This document shows, piece by piece, positions 7,626 to 34,352 of a DNA stretch of 64,000 nucleotides. Source of the DNA: a virus (lineage: Duplodnaviria; Caudoviricetes); the IMG/VR virus record IMGVR_UViG_2974795854_000001, positions 8,980-72,979 of that record; one strand, 5' to 3'. A program made the translations under genes and the position numbers. The notes under the pieces were generated by a model. The model was not told the origin of the DNA, ran no database searches, and saw only the letters and a program-made list of their open reading frames with translations. Numbering within the stretch: position 1 is the stretch's first letter; each line of letters opens with the position of its first letter.

Positions 7626-10265
7626 CTATTTTATAAGTGTACTGGTGTGACCCGTGTTTCTATATTTTCTTATCAAAGATACGTTTTTTTCCTTATCATT
7701 CTTTTTCTCGATAGGGTTGTATCTCTCTCGTTGACATCCCATTATGGCTAATCCACTAGAGATGGTTGCATCATGGGCAGTTCTAGCACTTGGATTGAAT
7801 ATCATCCAGTCTGAAATAGTGTCGTTAAAGACCATGTTACCCATGTCTCCCTCCGGTCTGTATTTTATACCTTCTGGCGCTGTACTAACTCCTACGTGAC
7901 ATTGTATAAAAGTTCTAATACAGTTTTCGTGAGTATCTAAAATATCCTTACTCTGCATTGGCTGTCCTCCTAATACTAAATCATCTCCGTCTAGTTTCTT
8001 CTTATCTACTCTATTCATTGAGAATGGTCTAGATCTGTTAGAGTAAATGTATCTAACAAAATCTCTCCTGTTGTTCTCTGCTAATATAGGTAGTCCGTAG
8101 AACCATGCCGCCATAAATATATCTTCGTTAAATATGTCCTGTGTTGCAGGCCTATCTAAGTATTCAAAGAAGAAGAAGTTTGTCGGAACTCCATGTGCGT
8201 TAGGTTTAGAGTACCCGTGGGCAGCTCCTTTAGACGCTTTATTTTTACCTTGTACGTATGAACCAAAACAATCGACTCCTATACAACCGTAGTCGTTCAT
8301 TGGAGTGTATAAGTTTCTTACAGACTTTACATTATTTCTAAGGTGGTCTGTGTTATCTCCTTTGTTCGGCATCCAAGCTATCTTGAACCTACCTCTATCA
8401 TCCGGTATAAACTCTACCTTAGAGAATCTTACGTCATTTTCCCATTTGAAATTACCTCTAACGTATTGACTCTTAACAATAGACACCTCTTCGTTGTTAT
8501 CCCATTGGTCAGTAAGTTTAGTAAGGTTGAATACACACTCATCTGCCTCATCCCTCATAGCGTGAGATTCGGTCATAGGGAATGCTCTGTATGCTGCGTT
8601 AAGAGCTACATCATCTGTATTCTTTGCATCATTGTACATCTCTTTAATAGCCTGTATAGAACCTTTAAGTATTGGCTCTCCGAACACGTTAAGGGTTCCT
8701 TTTGGAGGAGTTTCTTCCCAACACTTACCATATTTATCAATACAGTTTTCGTAGTTGGTGTGCGCTCCCATAAAGTAAGAGTACAATTTAGTTGAGGTAA
8801 ACCCTGACTCTTGCCTCTCTGAGACCTTAGAGTTTCTATAAAGTATTTTAAAATCTTCACCACCGGCATTTAATTTACCCATAGTAGACCCTAAGAATAC
8901 TTTACCCACTACTCTACCACCACGGAAGGTTGTAGGTAATAGTGTACCTAAGTGTTCTATGTAACTTGCTCTATCCCATTTAGCTGATTCATCCCCAATA
9001 TACAACTTCATGTGTCTACCATCATAGGCCTTAACCTTGGTAGCCTCGAAGTCGGTCATACTGTTCACATAACCATCTGTAGTTGTATCTTTTTTCTTTT
9101 TCTCGTCCTTACTAGAGTTTGATGGCTTACCAAAAGCTAAGTTAGTAGGAGAATCGACTTTACCTTTATAAATAGGTTGGAAGAAGAACGGCCATTCTTG
9201 AAACGTATAAGACATCTTACCAAAGGCTACTCTGGCATCATCATCCGTCATCGAAGTCAATCCTGTTCTGGCTCCTATAACCCTAGTTACTAATTCTAAA
9301 GAATCTGACATCATCCCATAAGTATACCCCGTTTGACGAGACTTAAGGAATATTTGACCCATAGACCTAGAATCTACGTAGCAGGCCTCTTTATGGTAGT
9401 AAAGTAAAAGTTGAGCATGTCTATAAGTAGGGTATATCTGGTCATCAAACATCTTTCCCCATTGTAATTGCATCCAATGTCTAGGAGACAACCAAGTAGG
9501 TTTTCCGTTGTTGTAGAACCAAAGACCTTCTCTTCTTATCCTAAACTGCTCTAATATGTATTCTGTAAAAGGCTCGGCATTGTCAGGGGTAAGGCCTTTA
9601 GGCAACTCTTCCCTTCTCCAATACTGATCTTCTTTCTTTTTATCGTGAAATCTTATTTTCTTTCTGTCTCTAGGTGGTAGTGGTAGTTGAACCCGTAGTC
9701 CATCTAACTCTATAATCTCACCTCTAGAACCTTTTGGGTCAATAACTACTGCGTCGTCCTCTTCATTATACCACTTTTTATAGTAGTTTTCTAGAGGGAA
9801 AAACTCTCCGTATGCAAACTTTTCTGCAAACCCTCTGGTAAATTCTGCCTCTTTTAAGATTACTTTACCTGTTTCAAACTGGTGCCTAAGTTCTATTAAT
9901 GAAGAATCTAACTCGGTTATAGAGTTAAGTATCAGTAACTTAGTCTGGGCAGCTAGCTTATGCTTGTGGGCATCTAACAAGTCGTAATCGATCTTTGCTA
10001 CTAATGCCTTCCTTAAAGTCTTAAGTGAGGACTCTCCTGAATTTATTAACTTCTCTACGTAGTTTGTAAACTTTTTATCCGATGGAGAATTTGGACTATT
10101 TACCCATTTAGAAAGTAACTCCTTAGCTGTTTTGAATGATGTTAATTTTGACTCCATGGCAGCCTTAACCTTATCAGGCTCTATGGCATCTACTACCATC
10201 TGATAATCTAGACCCTCTATAACTATGTCTAGTGCTAATTCTATGTCATGGCTTAATCCTATCAT
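7626..10265 (-). CDS. terL: terminase large subunit with N-terminal extension
   Basis: Walker A region LKSRQTGYT, Walker B YIGDESAK, coupling motif STMG, RNase H-like nuclease motif IGVDC. Confidence 0.92.
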   Translation of the reverse strand: MIGLSHDIELALDIVIEGLDYQMVVDAIEPDKVKAAMESKLTSFKTAKELLSKWVNSPNSPSDKKFTNYVEKLINSGESSLKTLRKALVAKIDYDLLDAHKHKLAAQTKLLILNSITELDSSLIELRHQFETGKVILKEAEFTRGFAEKFAYGEFFPLENYYKKWYNEEDDAVVIDPKGSRGEIIELDGLRVQLPLPPRDRKKIRFHDKKKEDQYWRREELPKGLTPDNAEPFTEYILEQFRIRREGLWFYNNGKPTWLSPRHWMQLQWGKMFDDQIYPTYRHAQLLLYYHKEACYVDSRSMGQIFLKSRQTGYTYGMMSDSLELVTRVIGARTGLTSMTDDDARVAFGKMSYTFQEWPFFFQPIYKGKVDSPTNLAFGKPSNSSKDEKKKKDTTTDGYVNSMTDFEATKVKAYDGRHMKLYIGDESAKWDRASYIEHLGTLLPTTFRGGRVVGKVFLGSTMGKLNAGGEDFKILYRNSKVSERQESGFTSTKLYSYFMGAHTNYENCIDKYGKCWEETPPKGTLNVFGEPILKGSIQAIKEMYNDAKNTDDVALNAAYRAFPMTESHAMRDEADECVFNLTKLTDQWDNNEEVSIVKSQYVRGNFKWENDVRFSKVEFIPDDRGRFKIAWMPNKGDNTDHLRNNVKSVRNLYTPMNDYGCIGVDCFGSYVQGKNKASKGAAHGYSKPNAHGVPTNFFFFEYLDRPATQDIFNEDIFMAAWFYGLPILAENNRRDFVRYIYSNRSRPFSMNRVDKKKLDGDDLVLGGQPMQSKDILDTHENCIRTFIQCHVGVSTAPEGIKYRPEGDMGNMVFNDTISDWMIFNPSARTAHDATISSGLAIMGCQRERYNPIEKKNDKEKNVSLIRKYRNTGHTSTLIK

Positions 10266-20924: not shown

Positions 20925-21675
20925 TACAAAGATAGTACATAAAGTCTGTTAAACCTAATTTATTTTCAATTATTTTTAATTTATTTTATAAGTCATTGAT
21001 TATTAACGTTTTACATAATTAAGTTATTTGGAGGGGTAAAAAAGTATAAAATATTTATTTGTATATTTGCATACACGCTTTATTTTTATTATATTTACAA
21101 CATATTACATACGAAGAGTTTCTAAGGGTTTGACTTACTCAAACTAAGTACCGAAGATAAAGAACCTAGCGAATAGGGAAGTAGTTAGTCGGGCTACATA
21201 TCGTTCTGGCCAAGGATAGGCGTGCTAAGATAGTTATTCGAGCGAAGGAACACTGAGGAGTGTTTGGAGTAAGAGAGGCAATTCCTCCGCCATTTATGGC
21301 TCCCATTATAACAGGAGGTTTATACTAAAGAGCGAAAGCTTTTAAACCAAATTAAGTTATATGTTTTCGTCTAAATTGTATCACTCTAACGGGTTTTACT
21401 CTTTAGCGAAGCTATATCCAGAGAGGATTACCTAAAGTATATTATAAGAGAATAAATATAGATATAATAGAATATAGATAACCTAGCCCCGAGATAAGAT
21501 ATGAGATATAAAGACTATAAAATAGAAAGTAAGAAGAAGAGTAAGTTGGATTCTAAAAAAGAAGATTCGACTGCTCGAGTTTATAAACGAAAAAATAGCA
21601 AGGTGAAGGATGCCCTATCTTTTAAAATTAGGGGCAAATCCAAATTAGCCTAGCACCAACCACCAGTTGAAAACA

Positions 21676-21708
21676 AGAAAGCCACCTTTAATTAGATGGC
21701 TTTTTTCA
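21676..21708. terminator. bidirectional intrinsic terminator at the end of tRNA operon C
   Basis: aagaaagcca-cctttaattaga-tggctttttt: hairpin with A-tract and U-tract on opposite sides. Confidence 0.8.
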
Positions 21709-21714
21709 TTTAAG

Positions 21715-21786
21715 AACTTCTAGAGGGATTCGAACCCCCAATCTACCCGTTCGTAGCGGAGCGCTTTTCCGTTAAGCTATAGAAGT
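21715..21786 (-). tRNA. trnR: tRNA-Arg(ACG), operon C
   Basis: Acceptor ACTTCTA/TAGAAGT, anticodon loop CT-ACG-AA, TTCGAAT T-loop. Confidence 0.92.
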
Positions 21787-21793
21787 GTGAAAG

Positions 21794-21876
21794 TGCATCC
21801 AGAGGGATTCGAACCCCCAATCCTTTCGGCGACAGGTTTTAAGCCTGTAGTGTATAGCCATTTCCACCATGAATGC
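21794..21876 (-). tRNA. trnL: tRNA-Leu(TAA), operon C
   Basis: ACAGG-CT-TAA-AA-CCTGT, long variable arm, A73. Confidence 0.92.
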
Positions 21877-21885
21877 ATTAGTAAG

Positions 21886-21968
21886 TACCGGAAGAGGGAT
21901 TCGAACCCTCAAAAGTCTAGGTTTCTAAAACCCAATGATCTACCATTCTCTTTTTTACTCACTCCGGT
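21886..21968 (-). tRNA. trnL: tRNA-Leu(TAG), atypical, operon C
   Basis: TGGGT-TT-TAG-AA-ACCTA, good acceptor stem and T-arm, expanded D region and only a 7-nt variable region. Confidence 0.8.
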
Positions 21969-22003
21969 ATAAAAGGGGCGTGACATTATGACACCCCCTG
22001 TGT

Positions 22004-22080
22004 TGGACAACCGTATGGGAATCGAACCCATGTAATCAGGTTCACAGCTTGACCGCCTTTCCAATTTGGCGCAACGGAGG
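22004..22080 (-). tRNA. trnH: tRNA-His(GTG) with mismatched acceptor stem and encoded CCA, operon C
   Basis: Loop CT-GTG-AA, D stem CGCC/GGCG, T-arm ATGGG/CCCAT, acceptor mismatches C2.U71 and U3.U70. Confidence 0.8.
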
Positions 22081-22091
22081 ACTCTTATAAG

Positions 22092-22163
22092 ATGGAGTAC
22101 AGGGGCTCGAACCCCGACGAACTGGCTCAAAACCAATCATGCTAACCATTACATCATACTCCA
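22092..22163 (-). tRNA. trnQ: tRNA-Gln(TTG), operon C
   Basis: TGGAGTA/TACTCCA acceptor, ATTGG-TT-TTG-AG-CCAGT. Confidence 0.92.
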
Positions 22164-22209
22164 ATGTCTAGTTTCTACTTTTTTGGGAGATACTAGTAAA
22201 CAACCTTCG

Positions 22210-22284
22210 TACTATCGACGAGACTCGAACTCGCATTGCGCACCTTGAAAGGGTGGGTTCCTACTCCATTTAGAAGACGATAGC
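22210..22284 (-). tRNA. trnE: tRNA-Glu(TTC), operon C
   Basis: GCTATCG/CGATAGT acceptor, loop CT-TTC-AA. Confidence 0.92.
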
Positions 22285-22293
22285 AAATCAAAG

Positions 22294-22365
22294 TCGAGTA
22301 GGCAGGGATCGAACCTGCATTCTCCGACGTCCAAGGTCGGCACGTGCCAATTTTGTCACTACTCG
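22294..22365 (-). tRNA. trnP: tRNA-Pro(TGG), first gene of operon C
   Basis: C1-G72, A73, CCGAC-CT-TGG-AC-GTCGG. Confidence 0.92.
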
Positions 22366-22367
22366 AA

Positions 22368-22406
22368 ATAAAAAAAGCCCCAATGGTTTGTACCAAAGGG
22401 GCTCTT
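22368..22406 (-). terminator. attenuator terminator of tRNA operon C
   Basis: AGCCCC-tt-TGGT-acaa-ACCA-tt-GGGGCT followed by a U-tract ending a few nt before tRNA-Pro. Confidence 0.85.
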
Positions 22407-22429
22407 AATAGGATATTGTGCGTTGAAAA

Positions 22430-22519
22430 CTATGATAGTTCATCAATCCCATGATAAGACACCCTCGATGGTAATCGAAGTTGTTCTAAGGGCTCTTGAT
22501 GTAATAGTCTTGCGTTCAT
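22430..22519 (-). CDS. leader peptide of tRNA operon C (MNARLLHQEPLEQLRLPSRVSYHGIDELS)
   Basis: Manual translation. Codons 5-17 are only Leu/His/Gln/Glu/Pro/Arg, the amino acids of the downstream tRNAs. Confidence 0.85.
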   Translation of the reverse strand: MNARLLHQEPLEQLRLPSRVSYHGIDELS

Positions 22520-22520
22520 A

Positions 22521-22559
22521 TTGTAAATATACAACTTTTTTTTGATATAAAAAAACTTA
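22521..22559 (-). promoter_or_regulatory. promoter repeat copy C (TATATTTA -7 element)
   Basis: Near-identical to 23761-23800 and 25359-25394, and matches the Bacteroidota TAnnTTTG-type -7 box. Confidence 0.8.
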
Positions 22560-22571
22560 TACTATTTTATT

Positions 22572-22865
22572 TTATGTTCTTGTTGGATTCTTCTTAACTC
22601 TCTTCTTTGCAGCAGCTAATTTCTTAGTATATGCACTCATACCTCCGGCCTTCTCTACGTCCTTCTTAAAGGCTGCAGATCTATTGGCGTCGTTACGACC
22701 TCTAGTTCCTCTAGCTTCTTCTTCTTTCTTAAGCTTGCCACTTGTCTTAACAGTGTACTTTTTAGCTTTAGTGTTTGCAACACCACTCTTATCAGATTTG
22801 ATCGTTACGTTTTTCTTAGGTGCAGTTTTCTTAGTTGGCACCGTCTTTCTTGTAGTTCTTCTCAT
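22572..22865 (-). CDS. small highly basic protein between tRNA operons B and C
   Basis: MRRTTRKTVPTKKTAPKK..., Lys/Arg-rich. ATG at 22865 is preferred over the track start at 22913, which overlaps promoter-like elements. Confidence 0.7.
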   Translation of the reverse strand: MRRTTRKTVPTKKTAPKKNVTIKSDKSGVANTKAKKYTVKTSGKLKKEEEARGTRGRNDANRSAAFKKDVEKAGGMSAYTKKLAAAKKRVKKNPTRT

Positions 22866-22916
22866 TGTTGTTTGTTTAACGTTAAGTAGTAAAGATACGA
22901 AAAATACAAACATAAG

Positions 22917-22988
22917 AATCGGAGACCGGAATTGAACCGGTATAGCACAGTTTTGCAGACAGGCCCCTTCTCCGTCAGGTTCTCCGAT
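22917..22988 (-). tRNA. trnC: tRNA-Cys(GCA), last gene of operon B
   Basis: ATCGGAG/CTCCGAT acceptor, U73, loop CT-GCA-AA. Confidence 0.85.
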
Positions 22989-22993
22989 ATAAG

Positions 22994-23066
22994 TGCGATA
23001 GGTAGGTTTCGATCCTACTCCTCTGGGGTTTCAAGCCAGTGCTTCTACCAAGTTAGCTTCTACCGC
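22994..23066 (-). tRNA. trnF: tRNA-Phe(GAA), operon B
   Basis: GCGGTAG/CTATCGC acceptor, loop TT-GAA-AC. Confidence 0.87.
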
Positions 23067-23146
23067 ATTAAAAAACAACAGCCAAGACCTTCTCTCGGAT
23101 TTTATGGCGGCTCCTTTACATTATAGGATGCTCTGTTGTTTTATCG

Positions 23147-23215
23147 CGCGCACCCAAAGAATCGAACTCTGTCCTACGGGGTTGGAATCCGTTTGGCCAC
23201 CATGGCCTGATGCGC
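23147..23215 (-). tRNA. trnW: tRNA-Trp(CCA) with short D-arm, operon B
   Basis: GCGCATC/GGTGCGC acceptor, G73, loop TT-CCA-AC. Confidence 0.87.
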
Positions 23216-23222
23216 ATTAAAG

Positions 23223-23294
23223 AGGCTAGGGAGAATTACGATATCTCGACCTGACGCTTAACAGGCGCCTGCTCTTCCTCTGAGCTACCTAGCC
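23223..23294 (-). tRNA. trnN: tRNA-Asn(GTT), operon B
   Basis: GGCTAGG/CCTAGCC acceptor, GGCGC-CT-GTT-AA-GCGTC, variant T-loop ATCGTAA. Confidence 0.9.
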
Positions 23295-23303
23295 GTGTGT
23301 TTG

Positions 23304-23388
23304 TAGAGAAGAAGGGATTCGAACCCTCGGAGGCGTTAACCCCACTACTTTAGCAAAGTAGCACCTTAAGCCACTCAGACACCTCTCT
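23304..23388 (-). tRNA. trnS: tRNA-Ser(GCT), operon B
   Basis: CTACT-TT-GCT-AA-AGTAG, long variable arm. Confidence 0.92.
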
Positions 23389-23393
23389 AAATG

Positions 23394-23483
23394 TGGAAGA
23401 AGTGGGGCTCGAACCCACACGGGCTTTTAAACCCCAACTGTTTTCAAGACAGCGACCCGTAGACCTACTTGGCTTACCCTTCC
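23394..23483 (-). tRNA. trnS: tRNA-Ser(TGA), operon B
   Basis: GCTGT-CT-TGA-AA-ACAGT, long variable arm. Confidence 0.92.
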
Positions 23484-23490
23484 ATTATTG

Positions 23491-23572
23491 TTGCACCGTG
23501 CGGAATCGAACCACTCCCCTCTCAAGAACTGTTTTACAGACAGCCTGCTAGAACCACTAGCTTTACGTTGCA
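23491..23572 (-). tRNA. trnY: tRNA-Tyr(GTA), first gene of operon B
   Basis: GCTGT-CT-GTA-AA-ACAGT, long variable arm, A73. Confidence 0.88.
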
Positions 23573-23577
23573 AGTTA

Positions 23578-23620
23578 TAAAAAACAAAAAACCCTCTTAG
23601 CTACGAAAGACCAAGAGGGT
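23578..23620 (-). terminator. attenuator terminator of tRNA operon B
   Basis: ACCCTCTT...AAGAGGGT 8-bp stem (extendable) followed by TTTTTGTTTTT, just before tRNA-Tyr. Confidence 0.85.
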
Positions 23621-23669
23621 AAAAATCAAAATTAATAATCAAAAATTAATAAAAGAAATGAATATATTT

Positions 23670-23759
23670 TTAAGACAAGTACAACCTCTCGACATTATAG
23701 CTACTAAAGCTACAATTCGAATACCAAGAGAAATTATTGTATGTCATGTTTGTTTTCAT
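23670..23759 (-). CDS. leader peptide of tRNA operon B (MKTNMTYNNFSWYSNCSFSSYNVERLYLS)
   Basis: Manual translation. Codons 7-22 are 16 consecutive Tyr/Asn/Phe/Ser/Trp/Cys codons, exactly the operon's tRNA set. Confidence 0.88.
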   Translation of the reverse strand: MKTNMTYNNFSWYSNCSFSSYNVERLYLS

Positions 23760-23760
23760 A

Positions 23761-23800
23761 TTGTAAATATACAACTTTTTTTTGATATAAAAAAACTTAC
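23761..23800 (-). promoter_or_regulatory. promoter repeat copy B (TATATTTA -7 element)
   Basis: 39-nt identity with copy C (ttgtaaatatacaactttttttgatataaaaaaactta-type block on the plus strand). Confidence 0.8.
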
Positions 23801-23821
23801 ATCATTTTATTTTAAAAATAG

Positions 23822-23891
23822 TTGGAATAGAGGGAATCGAACCCATCTCCACACGCATATAAGACGTGCTAACCTACCTAGGCTTACTCCA
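23822..23891 (-). tRNA. trnI: tRNA-Ile(TAT), rare UAU anticodon, reduced D-arm, last gene of operon A
   Basis: TGGAGTA/TATTCCA acceptor (nearly the same as tRNA-Ile GAT), A73, CACGT-CT-TAT-AT-GCGTG, T-stem with two mismatches. Confidence 0.8.
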
Positions 23892-24013
23892 ATAAAGATC
23901 TTGTGGTCACTATATCCACATCACACGCTGTTTTAAGGTTTATCTCTGTTACCAAAGAATGCAGGCATACGTGTTACCTAAAAGCCTATAAGTGTTTTTC
24001 ACTAAGATCCAAG

Positions 24014-24084
24014 AACCTCTACAGGGATTCGAACCCCGATCATAGCGGTAGAAGCGCCGTATTTTTCCATTAAACTATAGAGGC
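24014..24084 (-). tRNA. trnR: tRNA-Arg(TCT), operon A
   Basis: GCCTCTA/TAGAGGT acceptor, loop CT-TCT-AC. Confidence 0.9.
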
Positions 24085-24145
24085 AAAAAAGACCTACCCT
24101 TGGACACTTTGAGACGTTCTCCTAGAAGTGTGGTAGGTACTGTTG

Positions 24146-24219
24146 TACCAAATGACAGATTCGAACTATCGACCTTCTCCTTGTAAAAGAGCTGCTCTAA
24201 ACCACTGAGCTAATCTGGT
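24146..24219 (-). tRNA. trnV: tRNA-Val(TAC), operon A
   Basis: ACCAGAT/ATTTGGT acceptor, loop TT-TAC-AA. Confidence 0.9.
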
Positions 24220-24429
24220 ATATGGTAGGCATGTTACTACACCTACTTTTTTGTTTTTAACGTGGAGAAGCTTATTTCCATAACTCAAAACTCCATTACA
24301 ATACTTTTAACCTAATAAATAAAAAGGGGCTCTTGTTCACGATATCTAGTATTCGCTAAGCCCCCTTTTCAAAAAAACACTTAATCTAATGCGCTTCAAA
24401 ACTTCTCGAGAGGCGGATTAAGTCTGTTG

Positions 24430-24503
24430 AGCACTAATCAGGGATCGAACCCGAATTATCTTCGTTACAAATGAAGTACCATTTCCTATTCAGTCATTAG
24501 TGC
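24430..24503 (-). tRNA. trnT: tRNA-Thr(TGT), operon A
   Basis: GCACTAA/TTAGTGC acceptor, loop TT-TGT-AA. Confidence 0.88.
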
Positions 24504-24513
24504 ATAATTAAAG

Positions 24514-24590
24514 CGGTCTAAGAGGGATTCGAACCCTCGTTTTAGAGCAGTGACAGTGCAATTCGTGTTACCAAACACGCTTATTAGACC
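24514..24590 (-). tRNA. trnD: tRNA-Asp(GTC), operon A
   Basis: GGTCTAA/TTAGACC acceptor, G73, loop CT-GTC-AC, weak anticodon stem. Confidence 0.85.
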
Positions 24591-24665
24591 AGTTGGCAGA
24601 TGTCGATTAACTGCCGAGTGTCGTACGAACACCCTTTATCCCGAAGAGTGTAGAAACGACTTTTG

Positions 24666-24734
24666 TGGCGGGTATGGGAGTCGAACCCATCTATAAGGAC
24701 TTATGAGGCCCTCCGGTCACCACGACCACCCACA
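24666..24734 (-). tRNA. trnM: tRNA-Met(CAT) with short D-arm and unpaired 1:72, operon A
   Basis: AGGGC-CT-CAT-AA-GTCCT, U1.C72 mismatch, 69 nt. Met versus lysidine-Ile identity cannot be fixed by eye. Confidence 0.78.
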
Positions 24735-24744
24735 ATTTTAAAAG

Positions 24745-24817
24745 AGCGTAAGACGAGGTTCGAACTCGCTATCTCCTACTTGGAAGGCAGGCGCCATTCC
24801 ACTATGGCCTCTTACGC
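24745..24817 (-). tRNA. trnG: tRNA-Gly(TCC), operon A
   Basis: GCGTAAG/CTTACGC acceptor, U73, loop CT-TCC-AA. Confidence 0.92.
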
Positions 24818-24905
24818 AAATTCCTCTTTTTATAGAGTTGAGGTAAAAACATTCTCTTAGTCCAACTTTTTTCCTTTTTCTTTCTTTCGGTAGTCTTCCG
24901 CCTCG

Positions 24906-24978
24906 TTGGAATAGAAGGTTTCGAACCTACGACCTCTCCCGTATCAGGGGAGTGCTCTAACCGCTGAGCTATACTCCA
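24906..24978 (-). tRNA. trnI: tRNA-Ile(GAT), operon A
   Basis: Canonical cloverleaf, CTCCC-CT-GAT-AC-GGGAG. Confidence 0.94.
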
Positions 24979-25027
24979 ATATTACCTTATTCGCTTATAA
25001 TCCATTATATAAGCTAATTTACTTATG

Positions 25028-25100
25028 TGCCCCTGCTAGGAATCGAACCTAGCCCCACTGTTTAAAAGACAGTTGCCTACAACCTGTTTGCTACAAGGGC
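25028..25100 (-). tRNA. trnK: tRNA-Lys(TTT), operon A
   Basis: ACTGT-CT-TTT-AA-ACAGT, GCCCTTG/CAGGGGC acceptor. Confidence 0.92.
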
Positions 25101-25128
25101 AATTTGGTGTCAGTAAGGGATCTTATTG

Positions 25129-25203
25129 TGGAACTCATGGGTATCGAACCCATCTCACTCTGATTGCAAATCAAAGTCGCCTTGCCTTGGTTCATGCAGC
25201 CCC
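25129..25203 (-). tRNA. trnA: tRNA-Ala(TGC), first gene of operon A
   Basis: G3:U70 and A73 Ala identity elements, loop TT-TGC-AA. Confidence 0.87.
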
Positions 25204-25233
25204 AATAAAAAACCCTCCTTTTTAGGGGAGGGC
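25204..25233 (-). terminator. attenuator terminator of tRNA operon A
   Basis: GCCCTCC-cctaaaaa-GGAGGGT followed by a U-tract, abutting tRNA-Ala. Confidence 0.82.
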
Positions 25234-25261
25234 TGTAATAAATATCTTATATCTAAAGAAA

Positions 25262-25339
25262 TTATAGTACACGGCTCCTCCCCAAGAGTTTCACTCCCTT
25301 GGTTCTAATATCTGTCGCTATGTTCATAATTGTTTTCAT
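25262..25339 (-). CDS. leader peptide of tRNA operon A (MKTIMNIATDIRTKGVKLLGRSRVL)
   Basis: Manual translation. 16 of the first 17 codons are Met/Lys/Thr/Ile/Ala/Asp/Arg(AGA)/Gly/Val, the operon's tRNA set. Confidence 0.85.
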   Translation of the reverse strand: MKTIMNIATDIRTKGVKLLGRSRVL

Positions 25340-25358
25340 CGATCTTATTGCTTTGATA

Positions 25359-25394
25359 CAAATATACAACTTTTTTTGATATAAAAAAACTTAC
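25359..25394 (-). promoter_or_regulatory. promoter repeat copy A (TATATTTG -7 element)
   Basis: Same block as copies B and C, with a perfect Bacteroidota TAnnTTTG at 25359-25366. Confidence 0.82.
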
Positions 25395-25411
25395 TTGTAA
25401 ATAATTCTGTT

Positions 25412-25558
25412 TTAGATGTCTTTTCCGGTTTTTTCTTCAATCTTTCGCTCCAACTCGTCTGCAGCACTATTGAAATATGCCTGTAATTTAGGGTTGTTCT
25501 TCAAGATTAATGCGAAACCTGCCGCTCCGGCCAATACTCCTACTAAAAATGTAATCAT
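25412..25558 (-). CDS. small membrane protein (48 aa, MITFLVGVLAGAAGFALILK...)
   Basis: Manual translation. N-terminal TM helix plus charged tail, below the track's length cutoff. Confidence 0.6.
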   Translation of the reverse strand: MITFLVGVLAGAAGFALILKNNPKLQAYFNSAADELERKIEEKTGKDI

Positions 25559-29981: not shown

Positions 29982-30053
29982 GCTCTTTTCGTCTAGCGGT
30001 AAGGACATTCGGTTTTCATCCGAAAAACATAGGTTCGAATCCTATAGAGAGTA
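29982..30053 (+). tRNA. trnE: tRNA-Glu(TTC), early-region copy 1
   Basis: TTCGG-TT-TTC-AT-CCGAA, canonical cloverleaf. Confidence 0.92.
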
Positions 30054-30073
30054 CTAATATTAAAATTTAAGAG

Positions 30074-32434: not shown

Positions 32435-32506
32435 GCTCTTTTCGTCTAGCGGTAAGGACATTCGGTTTTCATCCGAAAAACATAGGTTCGAATCCTATAG
32501 AGAGTA
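32435..32506 (+). tRNA. trnE: tRNA-Glu(TTC), early-region copy 2
   Basis: Sequence identical to 29982..30053. Confidence 0.92.
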
Positions 32507-32526
32507 CTAATTAATACAAACTAGTC

Positions 32527-33970: not shown

Positions 33971-34329
33971 GGGGGCGACTGGTTTTGACAGGGTATAACA
34001 GTCGTTAATGTTCAGCGCAGAGAGATAACTGCACAAACTAAGGTGAAATTCTTTAAACGGAAACAACACGAATGCGGTAAACGCACAGATCGAAGCTAAT
34101 ATGGAAGCGGTAAACGCTATCCTTAACCTTGAAGTAGCAGTAGGGGTATAAGCTGACCGTTTTATCTGTTTTCTCAAAACAGTTTGGTGGAGCTTCAATC
34201 ATAACTATGGTTGGCCCCTCTAGCATAAAGAGTCTAAAGAAATGCCGTGTGTAACGATACTACACAAAAGCTGTATAAAACATTGACGATTAAGTGCTCT
34301 GGACGAGGGTTCGATTCCCTCCGCCTCCA
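33971..34329 (+). ncRNA. ssrA: tmRNA
   Basis: 5' GGGGGCG-ACTGGTTTTGACAG, 3' GAGGG-TTCGATT-CCCTC-CGCCTCC-A, G3:U70. Putative tag ORF at 34059-34151. Confidence 0.93.
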
Positions 34330-34352
34330 CTAATAATCATAAAACAATAAAG

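Follow-up and report, generated by a model that had tools for sequence, protein, structure and literature searches.

A predicted leader-peptide attenuator whose codons match the tRNA genes of its own operon in a Cellulophaga phage

The 64-kb window of DNA analysed here comes from a virus record of 72,979 bp and shares 96% identity with two phages, Cellulophaga phage phi38:1 (Callevirus, Pervagoviridae) and phi40:1. It carries 24 tRNA genes arranged in three blocks (A, B and C) at positions 21678-25395 of the minus strand. Expression of tRNA genes is usually taken to be constitutive or set by growth rate, and phage tRNA arrays are seen as simple add-ons; the arrays of T4, T5 and vibriophages are regarded as replacements for depleted host tRNAs that would keep translation going late in infection or once tRNA-targeting defence has acted, and we know of no codon-matched leader-peptide switch described ahead of them in those studies. 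The question raised by operon C is why its seven tRNA genes should be preceded, in this order, by a promoter repeat, a short open reading frame, a hairpin followed by seven U, and a spacer of only 4 nt before tRNA-Pro. We consider it likely that these parts form a ribosome-mediated (leader-peptide) transcription attenuator that senses the supply of the operon's own tRNA species, a reading for which sequence, structure modelling and comparative covariation all supported the original prediction of a leader-peptide attenuator.

The features described below are on the minus strand unless otherwise indicated. Operon C was found to contain, in order of transcription, the genes for tRNA-Pro(tgg) (22293-22365), Glu(ttc) (22209-22284), Gln(ttg) (22091-22163), His(gtg) (22004-22080), Leu(tag) (21886-21968), Leu(taa) (21793-21876) and Arg(acg) (21714-21786), and to be closed by a terminator at 21678-21703. 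Six of these genes were recovered by tRNA search. The Leu(tag) gene is atypical, having an enlarged D-loop, was missed by ARAGORN with default settings and reached 21 bits with Rfam, which is below the gathering threshold; it aligns with the Leu(tag) genes of four other phages, which occupy the same position in the operon and from which it differs by an 8-nt insertion in the D-loop. The same layout of promoter, leader ORF, purine-rich antiterminator segment, terminator and tRNA genes was found at both sister operons. Attenuator B (23591-23759; leader ORF 23759-23670, terminator 23620-23591) precedes the genes for Tyr, Ser, Ser, Asn, Trp, Phe and Cys tRNAs, and attenuator A (25211-25339; leader ORF 25339-25262, terminator 25234-25211) those for Ala, Lys, Ile, Gly, Met, Asp, Thr, Val, Arg(tct) and Ile(tat).

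Several further features of the region and its surroundings were recorded. Including the Leu(tag) gene at 21886-21968, three atypical tRNA genes scored below standard thresholds and were recognized by eye or with relaxed ARAGORN settings, the other two being Ala(tgc) at 25130-25205, which has G3:U70 and an odd D-arm and was not found by Rfam, and Ile(tat) at 23821-23891, with an Rfam score of 23 bits. Within operon A, between the genes for tRNA-Thr and tRNA-Val, lies a G+C-rich hairpin followed by T5 (24322-24370), which could act as a partial terminator within the operon or mark a processing site; leader A still carries Val, Arg(AGA) and Ile(ATA) codons for tRNAs beyond this hairpin. Between operons B and C there is a very basic 97-aa ORF (22573-22864) with its own TAnnTTTG box, the phi38:1 counterpart of which is annotated as structural protein gp069, and directly 5' of leader A there is a 48-aa ORF (25412-25558), hydrophobic and then charged in sequence, that is kept in Maribacter phage Panino (L003 4269-4418), where leader A lacks its own promoter and is apparently co-transcribed with this ORF. 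Outside the attenuated operons, on the opposite strand, the window holds two copies of tRNA-Glu(ttc) with identical Rfam scores, at 29982-30054 (+) and 32435-32507 (+), and a tmRNA at 33971-34330 (+), the tag of which ends in VAVGV according to ARAGORN.

The promoter repeat of operon C occupies 22520-22559, and the same sequence of 37-38 nt stands ahead of all three leaders. Its -7 box, of the type TAnnTTTG, lies at 22531-22524 and ends 4 nt before the ATG of the leader ORF, a gap that was also found in leader B and in most homologues, with the spacing partly ascertained by our search patterns. In Flavobacterium the TAnnTTTG box is located at -12 to -5 relative to the start of transcription (PMC9723704), and the close distance between box and ATG thus predicts a leaderless mRNA beginning at the AUG itself. 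Leaderless messages account for only about 5.5% of the mRNAs in a flavobacterium, and signs of leader-peptide attenuation at amino-acid operons have been seen in flavobacteria (PMC9723704). Phage phi38:1 depends on the host RNA polymerase (PMC5335546).

Directly 3' of this promoter repeat, leader ORF C runs from an ATG at 22519 to a TAG ending at 22430 (29 codons plus TAG), with the stop codon situated 28 nt before the terminator hairpin. Codons 5-17 (22469-22507) had been listed as CTA TTA CAT CAA GAG CCC TTA GAA CAA CTT CGA TTA CCA, which proved exact both by direct reading and by script, and a codon-box count bore out that they cover all seven tRNA codon boxes of the operon, including both Leu boxes and CGA. 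When each codon was assigned to the one of the three operons that has its tRNA gene, these 13 consecutive Leu, His, Gln, Glu, Pro and Arg(CGN) codons formed the longest run of their class across the six frames of the window, ahead of one of 10 codons. Since class-C codons make up a fraction of 0.272 of all triplets, about 0.006 runs of 13 would be expected in the whole window, and the codon match of leader C corresponded to a binomial p of ~2e-5 to 2e-6. Rare boxes are included in the run, namely CGN Arg, which represents 0.5% of the codons in the long ORFs of the phage, and His (1.4%), and the probability of full coverage of the seven boxes by chance, given 11 matched codons, was 0.028. Leader B has a class-B run of 16 codons, likewise the longest of its class in the window. 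In phi38:1, the differences from leader C of the window are confined to codons 3-4, a single base of segment 2 (defined below) and three unpaired positions, and in GenBank the phi38:1 leader forms the 3' part of an N-terminally extended hypothetical protein, gp070.

The correspondence between leader codons and downstream tRNAs was observed in other genomes as well. Every tRNA codon box of the operon was represented in the leader in 23 of 26 leader-operon pairs, compared with 3.8 expected (0 of 200,000 simulations reached this value), with the leader loci so counted not being phylogenetically independent of each other. The fraction of run codons that fitted the leader's own operon was 0.57-0.85, while for other operons of the same genome it was 0-0.36, and the correspondence extended to individual boxes, with Arg in the run always given as CGN in C-type leaders, where Arg(acg) follows, and always as AGA in A-type leaders, where Arg(tct) follows. 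Especially informative are genomes in which the tRNA genes are partitioned in another manner. In L166 they are split into four different operons, each with a leader of its own: a QPQPRHPH run stands ahead of Pro-Gln-His-Arg(acg), an FNDNNFD run ahead of Asp-Asn-Phe, an LLSSLLLSYLS run ahead of Leu(taa)-Ser-Ser-Tyr-Leu(tag), and a 19-codon run before a block of 12 tRNA genes, with Trp, Cys and Glu in both. In L054 the Asn tRNA gene is located in a Pro-Gln-Ile2-Asn-Leu operon, and the leader of that operon has four Asn codons, with the other leader having lost them; in L170 a leader with Leu, Arg(AGA) and Ile(ATA) codons stands ahead of genes for Leu, Arg(tct) and Ile(tat) tRNAs. Across these rearranged partitions (L166, L054 and L170), as read from the sequences, the composition of the predicted leaders tracks the content of the operons. 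Some run codons had no match in their operon, including Asn in leader A, His in the C leader of L054 (L054_C), and Asn and Ser in L170.

Two loci, L029 and L078, have B-type leaders with the full Tyr/Ser/Asn/Trp/Phe/Cys checklist and only one detected tRNA gene each (Phe or Asn); these would be either decayed operons with a lagging leader or operons with missed tRNA genes, and in L143 the same leader as in L029 stands before a full operon. In L054 an ORF that by eye resembles an HNH endonuclease (7730-8236) is inserted between an attenuator and its tRNA genes, and in L170 an ORF is found within the tRNA array from about position 2270, which suggests mobile-element traffic in these arrays.

The same operon, with the same gene order and a similar leader and terminator, was found in the unrelated myovirus phi4:1 and in Maribacter phage Panino, and the layout recurred in about 15 metagenomic contigs (IMG/VR, metagenome and MAG) retrieved with promoter-plus-start patterns. 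These patterns consisted of the promoter, the ATG and the next six bases, and left codon content beyond the first three codons unspecified; the promoter spacing and the identity of the first three residues are therefore in part a product of the search. In approximately 28 leaders the spacing between promoter and ATG, ascertained in this manner, was fixed and the reading frame was open through segment 2, and from these two features we infer that the leader ORFs are translated. The residues of the B leaders were shuffled in order and kept in composition, three near-identical C runs had a synonymous CTC/CTG exchange as their sole difference, and the tails of the leader peptides diverged freely. 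Conserved composition together with shuffled order is, in these predicted peptides, the signature of selection on decoding and not on a peptide or an RNA motif.

Other searches gave less. The scan of bacterial genomes turned up the element on one contig alone, of 78.9 kb and binned with a Lacinutrix MAG; this contig is probably a phage, and no host chromosomal copy with this promoter was seen in that scan. Comparison of L166 and L170 with isolate phages by blastn gave matches only at the level of tRNA genes, and the small protein upstream of leader A, used as a query, retrieved only phi38:1 itself. A degenerate pattern for the C-leader peptide gave a single match, attributed to chance and having no tRNA genes nearby, and a second promoter pattern matched mostly within a conserved structural gene, in another frame and inside a longer coding region with no tRNA genes downstream; both were discarded.

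At its 3' end the leader region holds an intrinsic terminator (22370-22402), made up of a hairpin at 22402-22377 with a folding energy of -15.7 kcal/mol and a tract of seven T at 22376-22370, 4 nt before tRNA-Pro. It had been proposed that the segment after the codon run pairs with the 5' arm of this terminator, and such a pairing was found with RNAduplex for what we here call segment 2 (22456-22473), at -13.4 kcal/mol (z -2.35). A nested inner helix, which had only been suspected, was present in the minimum-energy fold of the whole antiterminator (22389-22474), comprising segment 2, the inner helix and the terminator 5' arm (-26.5 kcal/mol, z -3.53). The full leader folded at -42.9 kcal/mol (z -4.55) into a long hairpin between segments 1 and 2 together with the terminator. 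That fold includes a small seven-pair stem (segments 1:2, 22463-22480), which would engage the antiterminator strand over its 5' part and may also serve as a pause hairpin.

We modelled the alternatives with partition functions, using a 28-nt ribosome mask and transcripts ending before the terminator 3' arm. In almost all leaders the 5' arm was sequestered with the A-site on the run and freed with the ribosome over segment 2, and the contrast between ribosome positions was clear for most of the sister and homologous leaders. For leader C the modelled sequestration of the 5' arm was 0.78 in the absence of a ribosome, fell to about 0.7 when one occupied the run and to about 0.5 when one covered segment 2, and rose again at the stop codon; because the ORF extends 12 codons beyond the run, a terminating ribosome does not cover segment 2. 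This was the smallest contrast in the set, in agreement with the original prediction that the antiterminator of C is less clean than those of A and B, and attenuator C is in the model the weakest predicted switch of all. The terminator won at equilibrium in all modelled states of C, so that the switch must be kinetic if it operates as predicted. In several leaders the modelled antiterminator formed by default without any ribosome (W_A 1.00, Pan_C 0.94), from which it follows that the predicted direction, with slow or absent translation giving expression, would be independent of the 1:2 hairpin.

Pairing was also compared between leaders. In each of them the segment that paired best with the terminator 5' arm immediately followed the codon run, within nt 37-96 counted from the start and for the most part within nt 47-67. 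The terminator sequences varied widely between loci, with the upstream segment changing along with them. Covariation among homologous leaders had been named as a check on the proposal, and because a MAFFT alignment of seven C leaders shifted the terminator arms by up to 3 columns, we used an alignment-free swap test in place of column-based pair counts. Across 28 distinct leaders, pairings of segments with their own terminators had a mean of -10.7 kcal/mol, compared with -8.3 for cross pairings (permutation p<=5e-5, with 0 of 20,000 permutations reaching the observed value), showing that antiterminator segments track their own terminators. Mononucleotide shuffles of single leaders constituted a weak control for the antiterminator, with p ranging from 0.0 to 0.5 per leader. 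Three bases changed together in the C family, namely the first of the 5' arm, the last of the 3' arm and the last of segment 2, these being C, G and G in Panino and L017, and G, C, and either C or T in phi4:1, L123 and L124. Leader codons with tRNA genes and segment 2 with the terminator arm thus represent two covariations observed at these loci, in addition to the arrangement of parts and its recurrence.

We also compared positions 21600-25450 with four SOLiD RNA-seq runs of phi38:1 infection, available as Logan contigs, which break at the promoter repeats and carry no information on 3' ends, strand or levels. A contig over leader C (22441-22544) had a depth of about 2400 and one covering operon C up to 22378 a depth of about 280, these being depths of assembled contigs and not a measure of level. 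The stretch over terminator C fell uncovered between contigs in all four runs, such contig breaks being uninformative on 3' ends, and attenuators A and B were bridged by contigs that show neither strand nor levels. At the hairpin at 24322-24370 inside operon A the contigs broke in two runs and bridged in one. The contigs also skipped 117 nt at 23894-24010, a gap that represents a strain indel between Arg(tct) and Ile(tat) and not a splice. The published transcriptome study of phi38:1 makes no mention of the attenuator (PMC5335546).

Three other explanations were weighed against these results. The leaders could be translation-coupled attenuators that report general translation capacity or stage of infection, through ribosome availability or early versus late timing, with the codon match as a by-product. 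The modelled switch would allow this, as it depends only on a ribosome reaching segment 2 in time, and so would the leaders in which the antiterminator is the default state without a ribosome; however, a general sensor would need no codon checklist, and leader composition follows the tRNA set through at least four partitions, down to CGN versus AGA and ATA boxes, which is hard to explain without selection at the level of isoacceptors, and we consider this explanation unlikely. We give still less credence, as a distinctly improbable case, to a sensor acting at the RNA level and without translation, either by T-box-like pairing between triplets and anticodons or mainly as a processing or pause signal for maturation of the tRNA precursor. 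In its favour are the strongly structured leader RNA (z -4.55) and the position of the terminator hairpin, which by adjoining the first tRNA at 4 nt becomes part of the RNase P 5' leader; against it, the start codon stands at a constant distance from the promoter in all of the approximately 28 leaders, with the run in its frame and that frame open through segment 2. It was moreover composition and not sequence that was conserved, fitting decoding and not docking between RNAs, and neither a match to T-box or other Rfam families nor a conserved motif for binding of the tRNA acceptor was seen.

It is, finally, very improbable in our judgement that the match between ORFs and tRNAs arose by chance, or that the ORFs specify small proteins with no role in tRNA control and the hairpin simply ends transcription of the upstream gene. 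AT-rich DNA often contains short ORFs, and GenBank lists hypothetical proteins at some of the leader ORFs (phi38:1 gp070, Panino CDS0063 and phi4:1 gp075), but a run of this length was hardly expected in the window and the complete checklists far exceeded their expected number, the peptides were conserved in composition and not in sequence, and a promoter separates the hairpin from the upstream gene, which means that the hairpin would terminate the transcript from that promoter.

Leader-peptide attenuation governed by the supply of the operon's own tRNAs would instead account for these features by the following course of events. Host RNA polymerase would start at the sigma-A type promoter, giving a transcript that begins at the leader start codon, and a ribosome would translate the 29-codon leader as the polymerase moves ahead. 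Codons 5-17 would serve as a checklist in which every one of the seven downstream tRNAs has one codon or more, and a race would ensue in which the ribosome has to decode about 15 checklist codons and arrive at segment 2 before the polymerase makes the terminator 5' arm, roughly 50-65 nt further on. If decoding is fast, the ribosome would cover segment 2 (22473-22456) before the 5' arm is made, the terminator would form, and transcription would end at 22376-22370, 4 nt before tRNA-Pro. If a charged tRNA is scarce, any one slow codon would make the ribosome lag, leaving segment 2 free to pair with the terminator 5' arm as an antiterminator, whereupon the polymerase would read into the seven tRNA genes. 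The phage would in this manner probably make the tRNAs of operon C only when ribosomes decode those codons slowly, resulting in negative feedback on the supply of exactly the tRNAs that are sensed, at the level of isoacceptors. The trigger might be the decay of host tRNAs following shut-off, anticodon-nuclease defence or codon demand; stalling reports charged tRNA, which makes amino-acid starvation and tRNA loss indistinguishable from sequence.

A wider proposal, the truth of which we regard as evenly balanced, is that Bacteroidota phages carry a codon-resolved sensor of tRNA supply, in which a ribosome on a leaderless checklist ORF races the polymerase and the summed decoding time, with one codon per operon tRNA, sets transcription of the matching operon. 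The phage would thereby detect which host tRNAs run out, whether through shut-off or anticodon-nuclease defence, and replace just those, with leaders and operons evolving in lock-step. If real, a leader-peptide switch with codons listing the operon's own tRNAs would be a direct feedback loop on tRNA supply, and the most multiplexed attenuator known, with up to 12 species sensed. It would account for the way in which phages set the dose of their tRNAs, could connect the arrays with host defences that target tRNA, would make the partition of tRNA genes into operons a readable regulatory code, and would lead to re-annotation of a class of phage "hypothetical proteins". The element is present in cultured phages with laboratory hosts, namely phi38:1 and phi4:1 on Cellulophaga baltica and Panino on Maribacter, and the idea is thus directly testable.

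With regard to known systems, no match to T-box or other cis-regulatory Rfam families was obtained in 21600-25450, even at E<=1, and Rfam families of amino-acid operon leaders (His, Leu, Thr, Trp and similar) gave no match in the leader regions. A full-text search, with subscription journals mostly outside its scope, found no description of leader-peptide attenuation of tRNA genes in phages or bacteria. T-box riboswitches bind uncharged tRNA directly via a specifier codon and the T-box motif, without translation. They resemble the element described here in being transcription antitermination systems that answer to tRNA status and control translation-related genes, and differ from it in that the codons here lie in a translatable frame and no T-box match was found. 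Leaderless polycysteine short ORFs in mycobacteria are reported to make a downstream operon answer to one amino acid (bioRxiv 10.1101/834739). Those short ORFs constitute a leaderless precedent for codon content setting the response of a downstream operon; they concern a single amino acid, cysteine-metabolism genes and another phylum, and their mechanism may differ.

The greatest likeness is to the enterobacterial leaders, such as trpL, hisL, leuL and pheL, and the multivalent ones, of which the thr leader senses Thr and Ile and that of ilvGMEDA senses Ile, Val and Leu. Shared with these are a short ORF with regulatory codons and, as predicted here, alternative antiterminator and terminator structures, a decision set by ribosome position and the sensing of several amino acids per leader, and the nearest counterparts are the multivalent thr and ilv leaders together with the leader of pheST. 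In contrast to the enterobacterial leaders, which regulate biosynthetic enzymes, those described here stand ahead of tRNA genes; they list up to 12 tRNA species, usually with one to three codons each, in the form of a complete checklist and not of a run of one codon, are predicted to lie on leaderless mRNAs, and are phage-encoded, in phages of Bacteroidota, with no similarity to the enterobacterial leaders in sequence or in Rfam. In E. coli pheST, with its pheM leader, leader-peptide attenuation controls an aminoacyl-tRNA synthetase, which means that decoding capacity goes up when decoding is slow, and attenuation acts there, as it would here, on a component of the translation apparatus. The pheST system senses one amino acid and regulates a protein, whereas in the element proposed here the output would be the sensed tRNA species themselves, closing the loop directly.
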